IMG/VR virus record: IMGVR_UViG_2703718840_000009
Location: 1-13,805 of that record
Source: a virus
Lineage: Duplodnaviria; Heunggongvirae; Uroviricota; Caudoviricetes
Strand: one strand, 5' to 3'
DNA: 13,805 nucleotides
Part shown: positions 1 to 13,805 of the stretch, one piece after another
Layout of the letters: each line of letters begins with the position of its first letter
Numbering within the stretch: the stretch's first letter is position 1
Notes under the pieces: generated by a model
The model's input: only the letters and a program-made list of their open reading frames with translations
Database searches by the model: none
Told to the model about the DNA's origin: nothing
Position numbers and translations under genes: made by a program

Positions 1-585
1 CTATTCGATAATGGGTCCTGTTGGCCATTCAATATCCGGTGCAGTTGATGTATCAACACGGTTCAGCAACACCCGATACTTCTTCCAGGCTTCCAGCAAC
101 GAGTTTTCTTCCTCCGTTGCGATCTCCAGATCCACAGCATCCTGAAGCGGCGCTATATGCTCACTGGCTACCTGCATCAGGCTGTTTTTTGTTTCTTCCG
201 CCTCCCGGATCCGGAACAGTTTTTCTGCTTCCGTATCCTTCACCCAGGCTGTGCCGTTCCACTTCTGATATTCCCCTCCCGGCGACAACCAGGTAACATT
301 TTCCGGTAACGGACCGAGTTCAGAAATAAATAACGCGTCGCCGGAAGCCACGTCATAAACCGTTTTACCCCGATGGTCTTCAACGAGATGCCACGATGCC
401 TCATCACTGTTGAAAACGGCCACAAAGCCAGCAGGAATATCTGGCGGTGCAATATAGGTACTGTTTGCTGGCAGACCTGTATGAGGCGGAATATATGCAT
501 CACCTTCACCAATAAATTCATTAGTTCCGGCCAGCAGATTATAAATTTTTATGGTCCGTGGTTGTTCACTCATTCTGAATGCCAT
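1..585 (-). CDS. tfa: Tail fibre assembly protein Tfa
   Basis: 194-aa ORF ([24 protein letters not shown]...) matches lambda Tfa from memory. Stop codon is at 1-3; start overlaps the stf stop (ATGA). Confidence 0.9.
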
Positions 586-4116: not shown

Positions 4117-4410
4117 ATGAAAAAAATGCTACTCGCTACTGCGCTGGCCCTGCTTATTACAGGATGTGCTCAACAGACGTTTACTGTTCAAAACAAACCG
4201 GCAGCAGTAGCACCAAAGGAAACCATCACCCATCATTTCTTCGTTTCTGGAATTGGGCAGAAGAAAACTGTCGATGCAGCCAAAATTTGTGGCGGCGCAG
4301 AAAATGTTGTTAAAACAGAAACCCAGCAAACATTCGTAAATGGATTGCTCGGTTTTATTACTTTAGGCATTTATACTCCGCTGGAAGCGCGTGTGTATTG
4401 CTCACAATAA
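4117..4410 (+). CDS. bor: Bor lipoprotein (serum-resistance, Iss-like)
   Basis: 97-aa ORF with signal peptide and lipobox (MKKMLLATALALLITGCAQQ), matching lambda Bor from memory. Opposite orientation to the lysis genes, as in lambda. Confidence 0.9.
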   Translation: MKKMLLATALALLITGCAQQTFTVQNKPAAVAPKETITHHFFVSGIGQKKTVDAAKICGGAENVVKTETQQTFVNGLLGFITLGIYTPLEARVYCSQ

Positions 4411-4441: not shown

Positions 4442-4903
4442 CTATCTGCACTGCTCATTAATATACTTCTGGGTTCCTTCCAGTTGTTTTTGCATAGTGA
4501 TCAGCCTCTCTCTGAGGGTGAAATAATCCCGTTCAGCGGTGTCTGCCAGTCGGGGGGAGGCTGCATTATCCACGCCGGAGGCGGTGGTGGCTTCACGCAC
4601 TGACTGACAGACTGCTTTGATGTGCAACCGACGACGACCAGCGGCAACATCATCACGCAGAGCATCATTTTCAGCTTTAGCATCAGCTAACTCCTTCGTG
4701 TATTTTGCATCGAGCGCAGCAACATCACGCTGACGCATCTGCATGTCAGTAATTGCCGCGTTCGCCAGCTTCAGTTCTCTGGCATTTTTGTCGCGCTGGG
4801 CTTTGTAGGTAATGGCGTTATCACGGTAATGATTAACAGCCCATGACAGGCAGACGATGATGCAGATAACCAGAGCGGAGATAATCGCGGTGACTCTGCT
4901 CAT
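4442..4903 (-). CDS. Rz: Spanin inner-membrane subunit Rz
   Basis: 153-aa ORF with N-terminal TM segment and coiled-coil body; matches lambda Rz from memory. Confidence 0.9.
4501..4683 (-). CDS. Rz1: Spanin outer-membrane lipoprotein Rz1, nested in the +1 frame of Rz
   Basis: 60-aa ORF inside Rz with lipobox (VVVGCTS) and a proline-rich stretch ([15 protein letters not shown]). Confidence 0.85.
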
Positions 4904-5376
4904 ACATCAATCTCTCTGACCGTTCCGCCCGCTTCTTTGAATTTTGCAATCAGGCTGTCAGCCTTATGCTCGAACTGACCATAACCAGCGCCCGGCAGTG
5001 AAGCCCAGATATTGCTGCAACGGTCGATTGCCTGACGGATATCACCACGATCAATCATAGGTAAAGCGCCACGCTCCTTAATCTGCTGCAATGCCACAGC
5101 GTCCTGACTTTTCGGAGAGAAGTCTTTCAGGCCAAGCTGCTTGCGGTAGGCATCCCACCAACGGGAAAGAAGCTGGTAGCGTCCGGCGCCTGTTGATTTG
5201 AGTTTTGGGTTTAGCGTGACAAGTTTGCGAGGGTGATCGGAGTAATCAGTGAATAGCTCTCCGCCTACAATGACGTCATAACCATGATTTCTGGTTTTCT
5301 GACGTCCGTTATCAGTTCCCTCCGACCACGCCAGCATATCGAGGAACGCCTTACGTTGATTATTGATTTCTACCAT
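4900..5376 (-). CDS. R: Endolysin R (lytic transglycosylase)
   Basis: 158-aa ORF ([35 protein letters not shown]...) matches lambda R from memory; overlaps the Rz start. Confidence 0.95.
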
Positions 5377-5683
5377 CTTCTACTCCGGCTTTTTTAGCAG
5401 CGAAGCGTTTGATAAGCGAACCAATCGAGTCAGTACCGATGTAGCCGATAAACACGCTCGTTATATAAGCGAGATTGCTACTTAGTCCGGCGAAGTCGAG
5501 AAGGTCACGAATGAACCAGGCGATAATGGCGCACATCGTTGCGTCGATTACTGTTTTTGTAAACGCACCGCCATTATATCTGCCGCGAAGGTACGCCATT
5601 GCAAACGCAAGGATTGCCCCGATGCCTTGTTCCTTTGCCGCGAGAATGGCGGCCAACAGGTCATGTTTTTCTGGCATCTTCAT
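5360..5683 (-). CDS. S: Holin/antiholin S (S107/S105 dual start)
   Basis: 107-aa ORF beginning [32 protein letters not shown] with the Met1-Lys2-Met3 dual-start motif and three TM segments. Confidence 0.95.
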
Positions 5684-6088
5684 GTCTTACCCCCAATAAG
5701 GGGATTTGCTCTATTTAATTAGGAATAAGGTCGATTACTGATAGAACAAATCCAGGCTACTGTGTTTAGTAATCAGATTTGTTCGTGACCGATATGCACG
5801 GGCAAAACGGCAGGAGGTTGTTAGCGCGACCTCCTGCCACCCGCTTTCACGAAGGTCATGTGTAAAAGGCCGCAGCGTAACTATTACTAATGAATTCAGG
5901 ACAGACAGTGGCTACGGCTCAGTTTGGGTTGTGCTGTTGCTGGGCGGCGATGACGCCTGTACGCATTTGGTGATCCGGTTCTGCTTCCGGTATTCGCTTA
6001 ATTCAGCACAACGGAAAGAGCACTGGCTAACCAGGCTCGCCGACTCTTCACGATTATCGACTCAATGCTCTTACCTGTTGTGCAGATA

Positions 6089-6145
6089 TAAAAAATCCCG
6101 AAACCGTTATGCAGGCTCTAACTATTACCTGCGAACTGTTTCGGG
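6089..6145 (-). terminator. tR' intrinsic terminator of the 6S transcript
   Basis: On the minus strand, cccgaaac ... gtttcggg stem followed by a U-run (reverse complement of plus-strand 6089-6145). Confidence 0.7.
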
Positions 6146-6282
6146 ATTGCATTTTGCAGACCTCTCTGCCTGCGATGGTTGGAGTTCCAGACGATACGTC
6201 GAAGTGACCAACTAGGCGGAATCGGTAGTAAGCGCCGCCTCTTTTCATCTCACTACCACAACGAGCGAATTAACCCATCGTT
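6089..6282 (-). ncRNA. Lambda 6S RNA (short pR' transcript terminated at tR')
   Basis: Interval between the inferred pR' start and tR'; the sequence matches the lambda pR'-tR' region from memory. The TSS position is approximate. Confidence 0.55.
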
Positions 6283-6320
6283 GAGTCAAATTTACCCAAT
6301 TTTATTCAATAAGTCAATAT
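6283..6320 (-). promoter_or_regulatory. Late promoter pR' with overlapping qut site
   Basis: Minus strand reads TTGACT (-35), 17-nt spacer, TAAATT (-10), as in lambda (ttgacttattgaataaaattgggtaaatttgactcaacgatgg). Confidence 0.65.
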
Positions 6321-6359
6321 CATGCCGTTAATATGTTACCATCCGTGGCAATCATGCTG

Positions 6360-6752
6360 CTAACGTGTGACCGCATTCAAAATGTTGTCTGCGATTGACT
6401 CTTCTTTGTGGCATTGCACCACCAGAGCGTCATACAGCGGCTTAACAGTGCGTGACCAGGTGGGTTGGGTAAGGTTTGGGATTAGCATCGTCACAGCGCG
6501 ATATGCTGCGCTTGCTGGCATCCTTGAATAGCCGACGCCTTTGCATCTTCCGCACTCTTTCTCGACAACTCTCCCCCACAGCTCTGTTTTGGCAATATCA
6601 ACCGCACGGCCTGTACCATGGCAATCTCTGCATCTTGCCCCCGGCGTCGCGGCACTACGGCAATAATCCGCATAAGCGAATGTTGCGAGCACTTGCAGTA
6701 CCTTTGCCTTAGTATTTCCTTCAAGCTTTGCCACACCACGGTATTTCCCCGA
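6360..6752 (-). pseudogene. Q: Antiterminator Q, C-terminal fragment only (~130 codons)
   Basis: C-terminus (SGKYRGVAKLEGNTKAKVLQ ... HKEESIADNILNAVTR) matches lambda Q. The ORF-track extension to 7019 is antisense to bet/exo, so the Q N-terminus is absent. Confidence 0.8.
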
Positions 6753-6948
6753 TAACGATGAAACCATGCAGGAGATTAACACTCTGCTGATCGCCCTGGA
6801 TAAAACATGGGATGACGACTTATTGCCGCTCTGTTCCCAGATATTTCGCCGCGACATTCGTGCATCGTCAGAACTGACACAGGCCGAAGCAGTGAAAGCT
6901 CTTGGATTCCTGAAACAAAAAGCCACTGAGCAGAAGGTGGCAGCATGA
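6748..6948 (+). pseudogene. bet: Bet single-strand annealing protein, C-terminal ~66-codon remnant
   Basis: Reads (PD)[64 protein letters not shown], the lambda Bet C-terminus; stop overlaps the exo start (ATGA). Confidence 0.8.
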
Positions 6949-7625
6949 CACCGGACATTATCCTGCAGCGTACCGGGATCGACGTGAGAGCTGTCGAACA
7001 GGGGGATGATGCATGGCACAAATTACGGCTCGGCGTCATCACCGCTTCAGAAGTTCACAACGTGATAGCAAAGCCCCGCTCAGGAAAGAAGTGGCCTGAC
7101 ATGAAAATGTCCTACTTCCACACCCTGCTTGCCGAGGTTTGCACCGGTGTGGCTCCGGAAGTTAACGCTAAAGCACTGGCCTGGGGAAAACAGTACGAGA
7201 ACGACGCCAGAACCCTGTTTGAGTTCACTTCCGGCGTGAATGTTATTGAATCCCCGATCATCTATCGCGACGAAAGTATGCGTACCGCCTGCTCTCCCGA
7301 TGGTTTATGCAGTGACGGCAATGGCCTTGAGCTGAAATGCCCGTTTACCTCCCGGGATTTCATGAAGTTCCGGCTCGGTGGTTTCGAGGCCATAAAATCG
7401 GCTTACATGGCCCAGGTGCAGTACAGCATGTGGGTGACACGAAAAGATGCCTGGTACTTTGCCAACTATGACCCACGTATGAAGCGTGAAGGACTGCATT
7501 ATGTCGTGGTTGAGCGGGATGAAAAGTACATGGCGAGTTTTGACGAGATGGTGCCGGAGTTCATCGAAAAAATGGACGAGGCACTGGCTGAAATTGGTTT
7601 TGTATTTGGGGAGCAATGGCGATGA
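6945..7625 (+). CDS. exo: Lambda exonuclease (Red alpha)
   Basis: 226-aa ORF ([40 protein letters not shown]...) matches lambda Exo from memory. Confidence 0.95.
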
Positions 7626-7804
7626 AGCATCCTCACGATAATATCCGGGTAGGTGCGATCACTTTCGTCTACTCCGTTACAAAGCGAGGCTGGGTATTTC
7701 CCGGCCTTTCTGTTATCAGAAATCCCCTGAAAGCACAGCGGCTGGCTGAGGAGATAAATAATAAACGGGGAGCTGTATGCACAAAGCATCTCCCGTTGAG
7801 TTAA
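7616..7804 (+). CDS. Small hypothetical protein (lambda orf60a-like); start may be the ATG at 7622
   Basis: Small ORF immediately after exo, overlapping its stop, as in the lambda pL operon. Confidence 0.6.
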
Positions 7805-7968
7805 GAACGAGTATCGAGATGGCACATAGCCTCGCTCAAATTGGAGTCAGGTTTGTGCCAATACCAGTAGAAACAGACGAAGAATTTCATACGTTAGCCG
7901 CATCCCTTTCACAAAAGCTGGAAATGATGGTGGCGAAAGCAGAAGCAGATGAGAGAGACCAGGTATGA
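7777..7968 (+). CDS. Small hypothetical protein (lambda orf63-like)
   Basis: 63-aa ORF overlapping the neighbouring ORFs, in the same order as lambda. Confidence 0.6.
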   Translation: MHKASPVELRTSIEMAHSLAQIGVRFVPIPVETDEEFHTLAASLSQKLEMMVAKAEADERDQV

Positions 7969-8044
7969 CAACCACTGAATGTATTTTTCTGGCAGCGGGC
8001 TTCATATTCTGTGTGCTTATGCTTGCCGACATGGGGCTTGTTCA

Positions 8045-8260
8045 ATGACACCTCAGCAAGAAAACGCCCTTCGCAGCATTGCCCGTCAGGCTAATTCTGA
8101 AATCAAAAAAGCCAGACAGCAGTTTCCGGATAAAAACGTCGATGACATTTGCCGTAGCGTACTGAAGAAGCACCGCGAAACGGTAACGCTGATGGGATTC
8201 ACACCGACTCATTTAAGCCTGGCAATCGGCATGTTAAACGGCGTCTTTAAGGAACGATGA
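8045..8260 (+). CDS. Small hypothetical protein (lambda orf61-region); ORF track extends it upstream to 7979
   Basis: Internal ATG at 8045 gives MTPQQENALRSIARQANSEIKKARQQFPDKNVDD...; no recognisable domain. Confidence 0.45.
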   Translation: MTPQQENALRSIARQANSEIKKARQQFPDKNVDDICRSVLKKHRETVTLMGFTPTHLSLAIGMLNGVFKER

Positions 8261-8358
8261 ACATGAAAAGCAAAATTATCAGGGAGCTACAGGCTCCTTT
8301 TTTATTGCTCGCATTTACCCCCAAGCGTATTAACCAACAATTCAGGGATTAATGGAAG

Positions 8359-8580
8359 ATGGCAGACATCATTGATTCAGCATCAGAAATTGAAGAATTA
8401 CAGCGCAACACAGCAATAAAAATGCGCCGCCTGAACCACCAGGCTGTATCTGCCACTCATTGTTGTGAGTGTGGCGATCCCATAGATGAGCTAAGACGCC
8501 TGGCCGTTCAGGGTTGTCGGACTTGTGCAAGTTGCCAGGAAGATCTGGAGCTTATCAGTAAACAGAGAGGTTCGAAGTGA
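8359..8580 (+). CDS. TraR/DksA-family C4 zinc-finger protein (lambda Orf73-like)
   Basis: 73-aa ORF with CxxC-(17)-CxxC (HCCECGDPIDELRRLAVQGCRTCASC), resembling F-plasmid TraR. Stop overlaps the next ORF start (GTGA). Confidence 0.8.
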   Translation: MADIIDSASEIEELQRNTAIKMRRLNHQAVSATHCCECGDPIDELRRLAVQGCRTCASCQEDLELISKQRGSK

Positions 8581-8990
8581 GCGTAATTCACTCTCAGGCA
8601 CTGCGTGAAGCGGCAGAGCAGGCAATGCCTGACAACTGGGGATTTGACGCGGACCTTTTCCATGAGCTGGTAACACCATCGATTGTGCTGACACTGCTGG
8701 ATGAACGGGAAAGAAACCAGCAATACATCAAACGCCGCGACCAGGAGAACGAGGATATTGCGCTAACGGTGGGGAAACTGCGTGTTGAGCTGGAGACAGC
8801 AAAAATCAAAACTCAACGAGCAGCGTGAGTAGAAGGTGTTATCTCGGATGGAAGTAAGCGTATTGCTGAACTGGAGGCCTGGGTTGAATACACAAGAGCT
8901 GCATACGTAAGAGCAAAAGACAAGGGAGATTTGATCAGAGTTATTACCCGCCAACCAACGGGATTTTACGCTTACGTACCATGTAATTAG
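8577..8990 (+). pseudogene. ea22: ea22-like ORF interrupted by an in-frame TGA at 8826-8828 (83 codons, stop, then 53 open codons)
   Basis: N-terminus MSVIHSQALREAAEQAMPDNWGFDADLFHELVTPSIVL resembles lambda Ea22 (from memory, uncertain). After the TGA the same frame reads VEGVISDGSKRIAELEAWVEYTRAAYVRAKDKGDLIRVITRQPTGFYAYVPCN to TAG at 8988-8990. Confidence 0.5.
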
Positions 8991-9126
8991 GAATCCTTGA
9001 AGTGGCAGCCTAACTGCGGATACACTGAAATGGCGATTTGGTAACATGTTTCGCACAAGGCTGTTACTACACTTAGAGATAATCAGCCATGATTAAACGC
9101 TTTGTAAAAAGTAAAAGGAAATTACA

Positions 9127-9741
9127 ATGAAAAAATCAATACTAATTTTAGGGCTTACGTTAATTGTCTCATCTCAAATACCATCGGCAATGGCAAAAAA
9201 TGAATCAAAACTATGGGTTGTTGTTGATCGAACGGAAAGACATACCTGCCCTTCAAGTAAATGTGGAGTGGCTGGGAAACTATTTTTCAGGGAAGGCGTA
9301 GATTTTCTAGAAAAAAAAGGTGAATGGGTTCGTATAACTGAGCCATATTCAGCCTCATGTGTTGGAGGGGAAAGCGAATATATTAAAGAAGGTAATAAAT
9401 CCTGCACAAGAAAAAATGGAATCGTTAATGGCAAGTTTTCAGAATGGGTTAAACTTAGTGATCTTAGCAGTGAAAGGCCATCAGATCCTGCTGAAAATGC
9501 GAGCGGAGATGATACTTTAATCAAAGGATCTGATGACTACCGTATATACAAAAAAGAGTTTTCTTCGGCAGCTAGGAAGTTAATAAATGAAGGGGTCTGC
9601 ACGGAAAGCGATTTTAAGGAAATCGGAGGGTGGATGGCATCAAGCAATAAGGGTGAAAACATCTATTTCACATATTGCGGAGGAATGACGTTGTCGAACA
9701 GAATATATCTAGACGTTAAAAGTGGAAAGACTTTTAGATAA
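9127..9741 (+). CDS. Hypothetical secreted protein with a possible bacterial SH3-like N-terminal domain (non-lambda)
   Basis: 204-aa ORF with RBS aagga ~8 nt upstream and a signal peptide (MKKSILILGLTLIVSSQIPSAMA). Visibly AT-rich, several Cys, followed by a terminator hairpin. Confidence 0.8.
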   Translation: MKKSILILGLTLIVSSQIPSAMAKNESKLWVVVDRTERHTCPSSKCGVAGKLFFREGVDFLEKKGEWVRITEPYSASCVGGESEYIKEGNKSCTRKNGIVNGKFSEWVKLSDLSSERPSDPAENASGDDTLIKGSDDYRIYKKEFSSAARKLINEGVCTESDFKEIGGWMASSNKGENIYFTYCGGMTLSNRIYLDVKSGKTFR

Positions 9742-9812
9742 TATGATATTACCAATGACAGCATTAATTTAATGCCTCCATAGAATTATCTCCAGGAAGT
9801 AAGTATAAGAAA

Positions 9813-9850
9813 AGCCCGCACAATGAGCTGCTGCGGGCTTTGTGTTATTC
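9813..9850 (+). terminator. Putative intrinsic terminator after the secreted-protein gene
   Basis: Stem agcccgca / tgcgggct with ~11-nt loop, followed by a T-rich tract (ttgtgttatt). Confidence 0.55.
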
Positions 9851-10034
9851 GCCATATTTTATGAAGCAAATACGACACTATAGATAATTAAGCGTTACTG
9901 GTTGTCGATTCCTCACTCATTCCTGCTGATGGCTGTCTTCTTGTATGTGCCATTGAAGGGTAATATCGCGTAAAAAGATACCGGAAGTATCCGCGCCGCC
10001 ATGATTGTCTTTCTCCTGATGCAGGAAAAGCAGA

Positions 10035-10373
10035 ATGACTAGATCAGCAGCAGAGCGCAAAGCCGATCAGAGAGCCAAGCAAGCATCATCCGGTATGCGT
10101 AAGCTGGAGCTTGTACTTGATGCTCAGGAAATTGAAATGCTGGAGCGTAACTGAGCCACGCGCCGCTTCAGGCGTGCGCCTTACGAGTTTGGTGAGTACA
10201 TAGCATTACTGAGCCGCCAGGATGATGCACGTGTGCGCTGGCGTATAAAATCGATTAGCAGAAAACGTTGCCGTAAGTGCGGCGAGAGAGTTCCTGTTAA
10301 TTCATGCCCGTGTAATGGTGACTCACAATACTGGGTGACCAAAGGCTGGCACGAAACAAAATTAATGATATAA
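10035..10373 (+). pseudogene. Zinc-ribbon small ORF (possible Ea8.5 counterpart) split by an in-frame TGA at 10152-10154
   Basis: ATG at 10035 with RBS aggaaaag gives 39 aa (MTRSAAERKADQRAKQASSGMRKLELVLDAQEIEMLERN). After the TGA the same frame stays open to TAA at 10371-10373 and contains CRKCGERVPVNSCPC; a GTG at 10233 could restart it. Confidence 0.4.
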
Positions 10374-10401
10374 ATCTCTGTGACATGTCACGGAGGCGGC
10401 A

Positions 10402-10830
10402 ATGAAATTAGACCAGCAATATCTAAAAGATCTACTTATCGCATTCGAAAAAACTTATGGCCCTGACACGATGCTTAGTGAACTAGAGGATAATGGCTTT
10501 AATAGATATGACCAAAATTTTATTTTCCATATGCGATTATTATGTGACTACGAATTAATAGTTAGGGTTGATGGAAAACCAGGGTTCGGTCATATAATGT
10601 CCAACGAGTTAGGGGAAGGTGTTGAATATAGTTGGATCGAAGTACCACTGAGGTTGACAGCAAGAGGGCATGATTTTATTGCTGACTTACGTCAAAAGGA
10701 GGTCTGGCAAGCTATAAAAACAAACTTTAAGGATGAGGGAATTAGTACTCTTATGAGTGTTTCAAAATCACTAGCAAAAGTCTTTGCAAGGAAAAAAATA
10801 AAAGATATTACAGGAATAGATATTGAATAA
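10402..10830 (+). CDS. Hypothetical 142-aa protein, no signal peptide (non-lambda)
   Basis: Strong RBS ggagg 5 nt upstream; visibly AT-rich; preceded by a 12-bp palindrome and followed by a terminator hairpin at about 10877-10900. Confidence 0.75.
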   Translation: MKLDQQYLKDLLIAFEKTYGPDTMLSELEDNGFNRYDQNFIFHMRLLCDYELIVRVDGKPGFGHIMSNELGEGVEYSWIEVPLRLTARGHDFIADLRQKEVWQAIKTNFKDEGISTLMSVSKSLAKVFARKKIKDITGIDIE

Positions 10831-10876
10831 TTCTTAGCATCAAGCAACTACTGCCTTTGGTGAAAATTATATCTGA

Positions 10877-10900
10877 ACTCGCTACGGCGAGTTTTGTTTT
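10877..10900 (+). terminator. Putative intrinsic terminator after the 142-aa gene
   Basis: 6-bp stem actcgc / gcgagt with loop tacg, followed by tttgtttt. Confidence 0.55.
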
Positions 10901-10913
10901 ACGGAGATGATAA

Positions 10914-11081
10914 ATGCACTTCAGAGTCACTGGTGAATGGAATGGAGAACCATTCAACAGAGTTATCTAAGCAGAGAACATCAATGACTGCTATGACAAC
11001 TGGATGATATGGGCGCAGATAGCACATGCAGACATAACCAATATTCGAATTGAAGAACTGAAAGAACACCAAGCCGCCTGA
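10914..11081 (+). pseudogene. Small ORF upstream of xis (lambda orf55-position) interrupted by an in-frame TAA at 10968-10970
   Basis: Reads MHFRVTGEWNGEPFNRVI, TAA, then AENINDCYDNWMIWAQIAHADITNIRIEELKEHQAA to TGA at 11079-11081. The 168-nt span fits the 55-codon lambda ORF I recall at this position. Confidence 0.4.
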
Positions 11082-11120
11082 TGGCGGTTTTTTCTTGCGT
11101 GTAATTGCGGAGACTTTGCG

Positions 11121-11339
11121 ATGTACTTGACACTTCAGGAGTGGAACGCTCGCCAGCGACGCCCAAGAAGCCTTGAAACAGTTCGTCGATGGGTGCGCGA
11201 ATGCAGGATATTCCCTCCTCCGGTTAAGGATGGAAGAGAGTATCTGTTCCACGAATCAGCGGTAAAGGTTGACTTAAATCGACCAGTAACAGGTAGCCTT
11301 TTGAAGAGGATCAGAAATGGGAAGAAGGCGAAGTCATGA
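11121..11339 (+). CDS. xis: Excisionase Xis
   Basis: 72-aa ORF (MYLTLQEWNARQRRPRSLETVRRWVRECRIFPPPVKDGREYLFHESAVKVDLN...) matches lambda Xis; 3' end overlaps int. Confidence 0.95.
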   Translation: MYLTLQEWNARQRRPRSLETVRRWVRECRIFPPPVKDGREYLFHESAVKVDLNRPVTGSLLKRIRNGKKAKS

Positions 11340-12387
11340 GCGCCGGGATTTACCCCCTAACCTTTATATAAGAAACAATGGATATTACTGCTACAGGGAC
11401 CCAAGGACGGGTAAAGAGTTTGGATTAGGCAGAGACAGGCGAATCGCAATCACTGAAGCTATACAGGCCAACATTGAGTTATTTTCAGGACACAAACACA
11501 AGCCTCTGACAGCGAGAATCAACAGTGATAATTCCGTTACGTTACATTCATGGCTTGATCGCTACGAAAAAATCCTGGCCAGCAGAGGAATCAAGCAGAA
11601 GACACTCATAAATTACATGAGCAAAATTAAAGCAATAAGGAGGGGTCTGCCTGATGCTCCACTTGAAGACATCACCACAAAAGAAATTGCGGCAATGCTC
11701 AATGGATACATAGACGAGGGCAAGGCGGCGTCAGCCAAGTTAATCAGATCAACACTGAGCGATGCATTCCGAGAGGCAATAGCTGAAGGCCATATAACAA
11801 CAAACCCTGTCGCTGCCACTCGCGCAGCAAAATCAGAGGTAAGGAGATCAAGACTTACGGCTGACGAATACCTGAAAATTTATCAAGCAGCAGAATCATC
11901 ACCATGTTGGCTCAGACTTGCAATGGAACTGGCTGTTGTTACCGGGCAACGAGTTGGTGATTTATGCGAAATGAAGTGGTCTGATATCGTAGATGGATAT
12001 CTTTATGTCGAGCAAAGCAAAACAGGCGTAAAAATTGCCATCCCAACAGCATTGCATGTTGATGCTCTCGGAATATCAATGAAGGAAACACTTGATAAAT
12101 GCAAAGAGATTCTTGGCGGAGAAACCATAATTGCATCTACTCGTCGCGAACCGCTTTCATCCGGCACAGTATCAAGGTATTTTATGCGCGCACGAAAAGC
12201 ATCAGGTCTTTCCTTCGAAGGGGATCCGCCTACCTTTCACGAGTTGCGCAGTTTGTCTGCAAGACTCTATGAGAAGCAGATAAGCGATAAGTTTGCTCAA
12301 CATCTTCTCGGGCATAAGTCGGACACCATGGCATCACAGTATCGTGATGACAGAGGCAGGGAGTGGGACAAAATTGAAATCAAATAA
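11317..12387 (+). CDS. int: Integrase Int (tyrosine recombinase)
   Basis: 356-aa ORF (MGRRRSHERRDLPPNLYIRNNGYYCYRDPRTGKEFGLGRDRRIAITEAIQ...) matches lambda Int over its full length. Confidence 0.97.
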   Translation: MGRRRSHERRDLPPNLYIRNNGYYCYRDPRTGKEFGLGRDRRIAITEAIQANIELFSGHKHKPLTARINSDNSVTLHSWLDRYEKILASRGIKQKTLINYMSKIKAIRRGLPDAPLEDITTKEIAAMLNGYIDEGKAASAKLIRSTLSDAFREAIAEGHITTNPVAATRAAKSEVRRSRLTADEYLKIYQAAESSPCWLRLAMELAVVTGQRVGDLCEMKWSDIVDGYLYVEQSKTGVKIAIPTALHVDALGISMKETLDKCKEILGGETIIASTRREPLSSGTVSRYFMRARKASGLSFEGDPPTFHELRSLSARLYEKQISDKFAQHLLGHKSDTMASQYRDDRGREWDKIEIK

Positions 12388-12483
12388 TGATTTTATTTTG
12401 ACTGATAGTGACCTGTTCGTTGCAACAAATTGATAAGCAATGCTTTTTTATAATGCCAACTTAGTATAAAAAAGCAGGCTTCA
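12388..12483. other. attL: attL junction: phage P' arm with Int arm-type sites, 15-bp core (about 12461-12475), then bacterial arm
   Basis: Reverse complement reads tgaagcct-GCTTTTTTATACTAA-gttggcattataaaaaagcattgcttatcaatttgttgcaacgaacaggtcactatcagtcaaaataaaatca: bacterial-side sequence, lambda core, then lambda P' arm. Confidence 0.88.
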
Positions 12484-12521: not shown

Positions 12522-13805
12522 GTGAACACATTTTCAGTTTCCCGTCTGGCGCTGGCATTGGCTTTTGGCGTGACGCTGACCGCCTGTAGCTCAACCCCGC
12601 CCGATCAACGTCCTTCTGATCAAACCGCGCCTGGTACCTCTTCTCGCCCGATTCTGTCGGCAAAAGAAGCGCAGAATTTCGATGCTCAACACTATTTTGC
12701 ATCCCTGACACCAGGTGCTGCAGCGTGGAATCCTTCCCCGATTACCCTGCCTGCGCAACCTGACTTTGTTGTCGGCCCGGCGGGCACTCAAGGTGTAACG
12801 CATACCACGATTCAGGCGGCGGTAGATGCGGCAATTATCAAGCGTACCAACAAGCGCCAGTATATTGCCGTGATGCCTGGTGAGTATCAGGGAACGGTAT
12901 ATGTCCCTGCCGCTCCGGGTGGAATTACTCTGTACGGTACAGGTGAAAAACCGATTGATGTGAAGATTGGGCTTTCCCTTGATGGTGGCATGAGCCCTGC
13001 CGACTGGCGTCACGACGTCAACCCGCGCGGCAAATATATGCCAGGTAAACCAGCGTGGTATATGTACGATAGCTGCCAGAGCAAACGCAGCGACAGTATC
13101 GGTGTTCTCTGCTCTGCGGTCTTCTGGTCACAAAACAATGGCCTGCAACTGCAAAATCTGACCATCGAAAACACGCTGGGCGATAGCGTAGATGCAGGTA
13201 ACCATCCGGCGGTGGCACTGCGTACTGATGGTGACCAGGTACAGATTAACAACGTTAACATTCTCGGTCGTCAGAACACCTTCTTTGTCACCAACAGCGG
13301 TGTGCAGAACCGTCTGGAAACGAATCGTCAGCCGCGTACGCTGGTGACCAACAGCTACATTGAAGGGGATGTGGATATCGTTTCTGGTCGCGGCGCAGTG
13401 GTGTTCGATAACACCGAATTCCGCGTGGTGAACTCACGTACTCAGCAAGAAGCGTATGTGTTTGCACCGGCTACGCTGTCCAACATTTACTACGGTTTCC
13501 TCGCCGTAAACAGCCGTTTCAATGCTTTCGGTGATGGTGTGGCGCAACTGGGCCGCTCGCTGGATGTTGATGCCAATACCAACGGTCAGGTGGTGATCCG
13601 TGATAGCGCCATCAACGAAGGTTTTAACACGGCTAAACCGTGGGCCGATGCGGTGATCTCTAATCGTCCGTTTGCGGGTAATACCGGCAGCGTAGATGAT
13701 AACGACGAAATACAGCGCAATCTGAATGACACTAACTACAACCGCATGTGGGAATACAATAACCGCGGCGTGGGTAGTAAAGTGGTTGCAGAGGCGAAGA
13801 AGTAA
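12522..13805 (+). CDS. ybhC: Host outer-membrane lipoprotein YbhC (pectinesterase-family / acyl-CoA thioesterase)
   Basis: 427-aa ORF with GTG start, signal peptide and lipobox (LTAC); recognised as E. coli YbhC, the gene beside the lambda attachment site. Visibly higher GC than the prophage accessory regions. Confidence 0.88.
   Translation: MNTFSVSRLALALAFGVTLTACSSTPPDQRPSDQTAPGTSSRPILSAKEAQNFDAQHYFASLTPGAAAWNPSPITLPAQPDFVVGPAGTQGVTHTTIQAAVDAAIIKRTNKRQYIAVMPGEYQGTVYVPAAPGGITLYGTGEKPIDVKIGLSLDGGMSPADWRHDVNPRGKYMPGKPAWYMYDSCQSKRSDSIGVLCSAVFWSQNNGLQLQNLTIENTLGDSVDAGNHPAVALRTDGDQVQINNVNILGRQNTFFVTNSGVQNRLETNRQPRTLVTNSYIEGDVDIVSGRGAVVFDNTEFRVVNSRTQQEAYVFAPATLSNIYYGFLAVNSRFNAFGDGVAQLGRSLDVDANTNGQVVIRDSAINEGFNTAKPWADAVISNRPFAGNTGSVDDNDEIQRNLNDTNYNRMWEYNNRGVGSKVVAEAKK

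Follow-up and report, generated by a model that had tools for sequence, protein, structure and literature searches.

A single-gene AT-rich block in a lambda-type prophage remnant, probably a moron, encodes a two-domain protein predicted to be periplasmic

The AT-rich block studied here, at positions 8949-9891 of the window (the whole 13,805-nt stretch of DNA that was analyzed), carries a stand-alone, selected and mobile gene with its own ribosome binding site (RBS) and a terminator-like hairpin, and this gene encodes a protein of two domains that is predicted to be exported. We consider it likely that the block is a phage moron, that is, one accessory gene with a foreign base composition, situated in the accessory region near int of a lambda-type prophage. 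The sequence family already has catalogue entries as a hypothetical protein (RefSeq WP_000748282.1, PHROG 8310), and a moron that encodes an envelope protein is of a familiar kind; the one new element is the C-terminal domain of the protein, which has neither a Pfam family nor a structural relative in the PDB.

The block lies in a decayed lambda-type prophage

The window holds a decayed lambda-type prophage adjoining ybhC (12522-13805, + strand). Its sequence runs colinear with that of the isolated Escherichia phage Chlobot (98.5% identity) between 6753, a position within bet, and 12475, and this colinearity begins exactly at 6753; a truncated Q antiterminator gene (6360-7019, - strand) abuts the end of bet at about the same position. 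The bet remnant (6753-6948, + strand) amounts to the last ~60 codons of the gene and is followed by exo (6945-7625, + strand), by a series of small ORFs and, beyond the block, by xis (11121-11339, + strand) and int (11317-12387, + strand). The immunity and replication region is deleted from this prophage (gam to N, cI, cro, O, P and nin), and pL is gone. Except for a terminase fragment and the tail fiber, the head and tail genes are also lost: an N-terminal fragment of the large terminase subunit gene (1478-1657, - strand) directly adjoins the C-terminal part of the tail-fiber gene (585-1481, - strand), and the prophage is therefore a remnant of ~12 kb from which the head and tail genes have been deleted. 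The same prophage carries bor (4117-4410). A full-length match to the IS009 RNA family of Rfam (219.5 bits) lies at 44-242 (- strand), inside the tail-fiber-assembly gene.

Much of the immediate neighborhood of the block has decayed as well. Upstream lies a truncated Ead/Ea22-like gene (8577-8828, + strand; Pfam Ead_Ea22, E 1.3e-20), the copies of which in sister genomes are marked by RefSeq as frameshifted or partial. On the 3' side there are two decayed genes (9892-10374, + strand), a humD/umuD-like fragment and then an ORF at about 10036-10374 that RefSeq labels 'internal stop'. These are followed by an intact gene (DUF2513, PHROG 585; 10402-10830, + strand), which forms a second AT-rich block with a GC content of 0.36. 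The sister strain E. coli LZHX12 (L001) has lost a further 4.1 kb, from Rz to the Ea22 region, relative to window positions 4753-8853, and is 99.98% identical over what it retains, namely the moron, DUF2513, xis and int.

The block replaced DNA and truncated both neighbors

The GC content is 0.37-0.39 over positions 8850-9900 versus 0.47-0.53 on either side, and the 943-bp block itself has a GC content of 0.381 compared with 0.463 for the rest of the prophage (6753-12475). The earlier note, made from the sequence of the window, had described the gene as more AT-rich than its neighbors, and these values bear that out; third codon positions within the ORF (9127-9741) have a GC3 of 0.30.

We set the edges of the block by comparison with a P1-like E. 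coli plasmid, where homology to the window ends at 8948 and restarts at 9892. The left flank (8880-8948, + strand) is a remnant of a lambdoid hypothetical gene and is 90% identical to L012 positions 2501-2569, inside a 222-aa hypothetical CDS. The right flank (9892-9995, + strand) derives from the interior of a humD/umuD-like S24 peptidase gene, corresponding to codons ~46-80 of an intact 130-aa HumD (UmuD-like) gene; its frame begins abruptly at LLVVDSS and contains stop codons. Since both remnants match the interiors of genes on the P1-like plasmid, the block evidently took the place of ~1.1 kb of DNA that is found between the flanking remnants in related elements. The earlier note had called the gene an insertion: it is indeed AT-rich and missing from close relatives, but the sequence comparison indicates a replacement that truncated both neighbors, the humD-like gene among them, rather than a clean insertion. 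A transposon-type insertion was considered and rejected, as the block has neither flanking direct repeats nor terminal inverted repeats. A search of the block region with Rfam returned no RNA families.

The ORF is a real gene with its own translation signal and a probable terminator

The sole long ORF of the block is a 204-aa CDS at 9127-9741 on the + strand. A Shine-Dalgarno sequence, AAGGA (9115-9119, + strand), lies 7 nt before the ATG and is conserved in the copy on an E. fergusonii P1-like phage-plasmid. DNA similarity to that phage-plasmid (85%) spans from 8985 to the stop codon and no further; because it begins 142 bp upstream of the ATG, the upstream non-coding region (8985-9126, + strand) travels with the ORF and is a candidate regulatory or promoter region. 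A weak conserved TTGAAG-18-TACACT within it (8997-9026) was spotted by eye, but the promoter scan called no promoter there, nor any sigma-70-type promoter on the + strand of the region. Downstream of the gene, a G+C-rich hairpin with a T-rich tail (9811-9849, + strand) is a probable bidirectional intrinsic terminator, judged from its sequence, its folding and a scanner call on the minus strand. The hairpin (9811-9841) begins 70 nt past the stop codon and consists of a perfect 10-bp inverted repeat, AAAGCCCGCA/TGCGGGCTTT, followed by GTGTTATT, with a centroid energy of -18 kcal/mol. A simple terminator scanner reports it on the minus strand only, because its loop exceeds the limit of the scanner. 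The E. fergusonii copy has a different, canonical terminator at the same position. An RBS and a terminator of the gene's own had both been claimed in the earlier note and were found in the form just described; its broader claim of an autonomous unit stands for the RBS, the predicted signal peptide (see below) and the plausible terminator, but not for a promoter, as none was called on the + strand.

Compared with the E. fergusonii phage-plasmid copy (86% nucleotide and 89% amino acid identity), the gene has a dN/dS of 0.075. The relatives from Pseudomonas and Aeromonas share 60-69% identity with it and are likewise 204 aa long, with silent sites saturated in these comparisons. An identical 204-aa ORF is retained in a cluster of 406 member sequences. 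Because dN/dS is low, the length is kept in relatives and the fold is predicted with confidence, these comparisons confirm the ORF as a real gene under selection and not a product of chance. The antisense ORF at 9174-9524 (- strand, 116 aa), equivalents of which recur in relatives, and the short ORFs in alternative frames were rejected as second genes and are regarded as shadow ORFs, since selection and fold both favor the + strand frame. IS1 interrupts the gene in 3 of the best 25 E. coli matches; in E. coli 2017-19-1CC (L148 1628-3019), otherwise 100% identical to the window, it splits the ORF into two annotated pieces. The gene is dispensable, then, since IS1 disrupts it in some E. coli.

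The product is a predicted periplasmic protein of two domains

The N-terminus of the protein, MKKSILILGLTLIVSSQIPSAMA/KNESK, has the features of a Sec-type signal peptide (aa 1-23; 9127-9195, + strand): two lysines (MKK), a hydrophobic core with a Kyte-Doolittle mean of 2.8 over an 11-residue window, and then SAMA/K, an A-x-A site with predicted cleavage at AMA/KN. There is no lipobox. The AlphaFold2 model has a mean pLDDT of 90.3, with about 97 for the mature part; residues 1-23, at <50, are its only low-confidence part. A signal peptide had been proposed in the earlier note, and the charge, the core, the A-x-A site and the disorder in the model all agree with it. At this position relatives carry a signal peptide, a lipobox or a transmembrane anchor. 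Of the 221 family members with an initial Met, 126 look signal-like at the N-terminus and 39 have a lipobox, that is, one or the other in 165 of the 221; 15 more have a more distal transmembrane segment, and most others are fragments. Taken together, these features strongly support a product that is predicted to be exported by Sec, to lose a 23-residue signal peptide and to fold in the periplasm.

The six cysteines of the protein (41, 46, 78, 93, 158 and 184), which the earlier note had pointed to in general terms, are all present in 39 of 41 aligned relatives. In the remaining two, the first four are absent together while C158 and C184 are kept, such that cysteines are found only in even, co-varying sets. 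Because the cysteines are conserved and are lost as sets, they probably form three disulfides in an oxidizing compartment.

The first domain (aa ~27-115; 9205-9471, + strand) has the beta-barrel fold of an SH3b domain in the predicted structure and contains the conserved C41, C46, C78 and C93, probably as two disulfides. The match of the window protein to Pfam SH3_3 (PF08239) is below the gathering threshold (16.2 bits, with the cut-off at 27; E 0.012). The loose SH3-type resemblance of the N-terminal region reported in the earlier note is thus upheld by the fold but not by the sequence model. The structural model strongly supports assigning this domain to the SH3b fold, through which other proteins of bacteria and phages bind peptidoglycan, and by the same model we infer that it would bind peptidoglycan in the periplasm.

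The C-terminal alpha/beta domain (aa 124-204; 9496-9738, + strand) has three helices and, C-terminal to them, three strands. It can be placed in no described family and carries the conserved C158 and C184 along with the motifs SDD[YF], GGW, YFTYCGG and NRIYL. It is still predicted confidently when modeled alone (pLDDT 90). A profile of this domain matched 530 representative clusters at E<=1e-3, 403 of them at E<=1e-10, in a search of 1.84 billion proteins; in nearly all of the listed matches the domain is C-terminal, in proteins with total lengths of about 66 to 514 aa. The C-terminal domain therefore defines a widespread but undescribed family. The dominant architecture among the 71 longer proteins from this search pairs it with SH3_3, found in 42 of them at E<=0.001. 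As other anchors, a few of the 71 have an N-terminal zinc ribbon with a transmembrane segment, and a single member has an Imm_superinfect-type membrane domain. IalB and ankyrin repeats likewise occur in single members. None of the 71 has an enzyme domain fused to the C-terminal domain.

Searches of the whole protein gave little that bears on function. It matches PHROG 8310 over its full length (E 1.8e-136, 204 of 204 profile positions), a PHROG without functional annotation, and gave no matches in NCBIfam or PADLOC. Described defense and exclusion families showed no sequence match either (0 PADLOC families, nothing relevant in Pfam or NCBIfam), and no sequence or fold similarity was found to known superinfection-exclusion proteins or to the lysozyme inhibitors Ivy, MliC/PliC and PliG. 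Homology to a characterized housekeeping protein, which the earlier note had weighed as the opposite outcome, was not found. Its suggestion of a lysogenic-conversion or superinfection-exclusion factor stays a hypothesis that no result here contradicts and that PADLOC, Pfam and NCBIfam do not directly support. When the PDB was searched with the family profile, matches to designed TIM barrels were dismissed as spurious, repeat-summed hits, and those to SH3b domains were marginal.

The gene is found in many unrelated mobile elements

Some part of positions 8300-10900 is matched in 4,103 of 5,426 complete E. coli genomes, but most of the span is covered in only 126. The block itself, searched as a 901-bp region, occurs in 133 of the 5,426 genomes (2.5%), in 128 chromosomal and 11 plasmid places. 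Among 50,697 phage records only one has the gene, by DNA or by protein: Escherichia phage Chlobot, which was isolated in culture. The absence from lambda stated in the earlier note is implied by this result, provided that lambda is in the collection of 50,697 records. In lambda-type E. coli prophages and in Chlobot, the block sits at the same site, between the Ea22 region and DUF2513/xis/int. As for the distribution among lambdoid prophages, which the earlier note had also raised, the same block occurs on a second lambdoid backbone at sbcB, a prophage with an ERF/Abc-type early region (P22-like early) and a different integrase.

The plasmid copies are of several kinds. One on an IncA plasmid lies within a fragment of this prophage module that the plasmid has captured, and an independent plasmid cassette was therefore rejected for that copy; near-identical copies on other large plasmids may be similar. 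The E. fergusonii P1-like phage-plasmid carries a 90% relative 3' of an intact humD-like S24 peptidase gene, and a relative with 64% identity is found on a 5.3-kb ColE1-type plasmid from Citrobacter. S24 peptidase genes of the humD/umuD type lie nearby in three unrelated elements (the window, the E. fergusonii element at L067 2359-3524, and L059 2408-5597), which may mean only that both genes are found in accessory regions.

Viral contigs place relatives at quite different positions. In L050 the gene lies just after lysis genes (lysozyme, Rz), between a DUF2280 protein, possibly a small terminase subunit, and a probable large terminase subunit with no Pfam hit. In L059, a Pseudomonas prophage, it lies beside a GH19 endolysin gene and umuD. 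In two further contigs (L056 and L054) it is flanked by the capsid and cement genes and is encoded on the opposite strand, and in another (L064) it lies between tail-tube and capsid genes. The relatives in viral contigs are often lower in GC than their own contigs.

In Pseudomonas, the gene lies directly 3' of a tyrosine integrase gene in islands of ~6 kb, situated between sdhE/cptA and nadB or beside pyocin (pyocin S) genes. The order in these islands (L003 6402-12411; also L006, L007 and L016) is tyrosine integrase, the gene for the SH3b and C-terminal domains, a 208-236-aa protein, a ~105-aa protein, a DUF6971 protein of ~130 aa, a 337-aa protein without a family, and a KilA-N protein of ~174 aa; the neighbors, being KilA-N, DUF6971 and unknowns, belong to no informative families. 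The islands may be satellite-like or minimal integrative elements.

The family is thinly spread over species genomes, where 77 loci were found, in diderm lineages (Gamma-, Alpha- and Betaproteobacteria, Campylobacterota, Acidobacteriota and Vampirovibrionales). One relative is in a non-mobile context beside pheST, and distant homologues in Vibrio are syntenic chromosomal genes. Neighbor clustering over the 77 loci gave no conserved partner gene, apart from the Vibrio synteny. A toxin-immunity or effector-immunity pair was rejected, as there is no conserved adjacent gene. Even relatives at 30-50% identity keep both domains and the six cysteines, and many unrelated mobile elements have acquired the gene independently.

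With regard to the moron assignment, three of the four marks of a moron fit what is seen in the sequence. Presence is patchy, with the coverage counts given above and gene remnants at the edges of the block, the base composition differs from that of the neighboring phage genes, and a probable terminator lies downstream. The fourth, an own promoter, is at the level of a candidate.

Proposed role and alternative explanations

In the mechanism that we propose, the protein would be exported by Sec, its 23-residue signal peptide would be removed, and it would take up its two-domain fold in the periplasm, probably with three disulfides. The SH3b domain would tether it to the sacculus. The C-terminal domain would then be the effector, which may bind or mask something at the wall. 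The target would be incoming wall-degrading or wall-crossing machinery, such as the lysozyme on the tail of a superinfecting phage, a hydrolase that is secreted or delivered by a T6SS, or lysozyme. The mobile element would thereby protect its own host cell, with the gene acting without a partner. We favor a protective role because the gene appears to act alone, carries no enzyme signature and has been acquired repeatedly by elements that gain from the survival of the host. A specific protective mechanism at the level of the envelope is offered tentatively, as a proposal more apt to be wrong than right. We think it distinctly unlikely, in turn, that the C-terminal domain of 80 residues is an undescribed inhibitor or masking module that, tethered by SH3b, blocks wall-degrading or wall-penetrating attack from outside, be it by the tail lysins of phages, by hydrolases of T6SS or bacteriocin origin, or by lysozyme. 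Against both the moron assignment and the protective role stand the absence of a called + strand promoter and the deletion of pL and N from this remnant, and because of these two observations expression in the lysogen is only putative. The sub-threshold SH3_3 score, the lack of a match to any defense model or of similarity to known superinfection-exclusion proteins and lysozyme inhibitors, the existence of copies disrupted by IS1 and the chromosomal homologues in Vibrio also count against this reading.

Rather than blocking an attacker, the protein could alter the envelope of the host itself and benefit the lysogen in its habitat, as a lysogenic-conversion or host-fitness factor acting, for example, by tethering the sacculus to the outer membrane, or through tolerance of stress, vesicle formation, adhesion or resistance to serum (compare lambda Bor and Lom). 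A predicted periplasmic, peptidoglycan-associated protein on mobile elements would suit such a factor. So would the wide diderm spread with its chromosomal-looking, syntenic Vibrio versions and the pheST context, and so would the presence of bor in the same prophage. The chromosomal homologues in Vibrio hint, from their synteny, at a general cellular role in the envelope rather than a phage-specific one. Yet the protein has no similarity to any characterized envelope factor, and it occurs sparsely, in 2.5% of E. coli genomes. We regard conversion as somewhat unlikely in itself, and the evidence in hand does not tell conversion and protection apart.

Another explanation is an accessory protein of the lytic cycle, translated from a late transcript or from the early-left one (pL). 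It would work on the wall to the advantage of the phage itself, for example by tuning the action of endolysin or spanin or the timing of lysis, or by shielding cells already infected against lysis from without. The gene does lie, in genomes of the lambda type, in the delayed-early region transcribed from pL, in the same orientation, with no promoter of its own detected, and the relatives in L050 and L059 adjoin lysis genes (lysozyme and Rz; GH19 endolysin). However, because only 1 of 50,697 sequenced phages has the gene, it is not part of any core program. Other relatives lie among head and tail genes on the opposite strand, in non-phage islands and on plasmids, and the gene is intact in remnants that have no genes for lytic growth; we judge a lytic-cycle role improbable. 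Lastly, the block could be a decaying passenger, AT-rich foreign DNA silenced by H-NS that hitch-hikes with the neighboring module and has no current function in E. coli. Its pseudogene neighbors (the Ea22 fragment, the humD fragment and the ORF with an internal stop), the interruption by IS1 in some strains and the location in a remnant without a called promoter or pL would all be expected of a passenger. The dN/dS of 0.075, the identical 204-aa ORF in the cluster of 406 sequences, the conservation of the cysteines and of both domains at 30-50% identity, and the independent acquisition by many unrelated elements argue the other way, making a passenger very improbable.

If the protective reading is true, the gene would be a one-gene defense acting in the periplasm that is absent from current defense catalogues, and a family of domains that numbers at least 530 clusters, with no Pfam entry or solved structure, would gain its first function. 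If the C-terminal domain is in fact a masking module, this would be a new single-gene form of envelope protection that is traded among phages, phage-plasmids, small islands and plasmids across diderms. Regardless of protection, the block is a clean and well-bounded case of moron traffic, with copies of the gene in prophages of the lambda and P22-like-early types, on a P1-like phage-plasmid and a ColE1-type plasmid, in the integrase-linked islands of Pseudomonas, and within the head, tail and lysis regions of unrelated phages.

Relation to known systems

The concept of the moron comes from Hendrix and colleagues, and the lambda-type morons bor and lom encode envelope proteins. Like the window gene, these are single extra genes of different base composition that lie between conserved phage genes, have their own terminator and encode a product exported to the envelope. 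Bor and Lom have no sequence or fold relation to the window protein, which is predicted to be soluble and periplasmic, unlike a lipoprotein or an outer-membrane barrel. SH3b domains that bind the cell wall are known from lysostaphin, from the binding domains of phage endolysins and from the accessory domains of NlpC/P60 proteins. The domain of the window protein differs from these (Pfam SH3_3, PF08239) in that it is not joined to a hydrolase, is predicted to be periplasmic and occurs in diderm bacteria; it also has a 35-residue loop with the conserved C78 and C93, and a second pair, C41 and C46. Extracellular subdomain 2 of MapZ (PDB 2nda) and small alpha+beta folds of the cystatin/BLIP-like kind were counted among the closest known systems. 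A literature search on WP_000748282.1, on phage Chlobot and on SH3 with superinfection exclusion returned nothing relevant.

T4 Spackle (Sp), T4 Imm, T5 Llp and Cor of phi80 and HK022 are superinfection-exclusion proteins that act at the level of the envelope. No homology to the window protein was detected for any of them, and the Imm_superinfect-type fusion, present in only 1 of the 71 longer relatives, may be only a membrane anchor. They are likewise small and phage-encoded, are exported to the periplasm or envelope and act alone, and it is with them that we draw the favored functional analogy.
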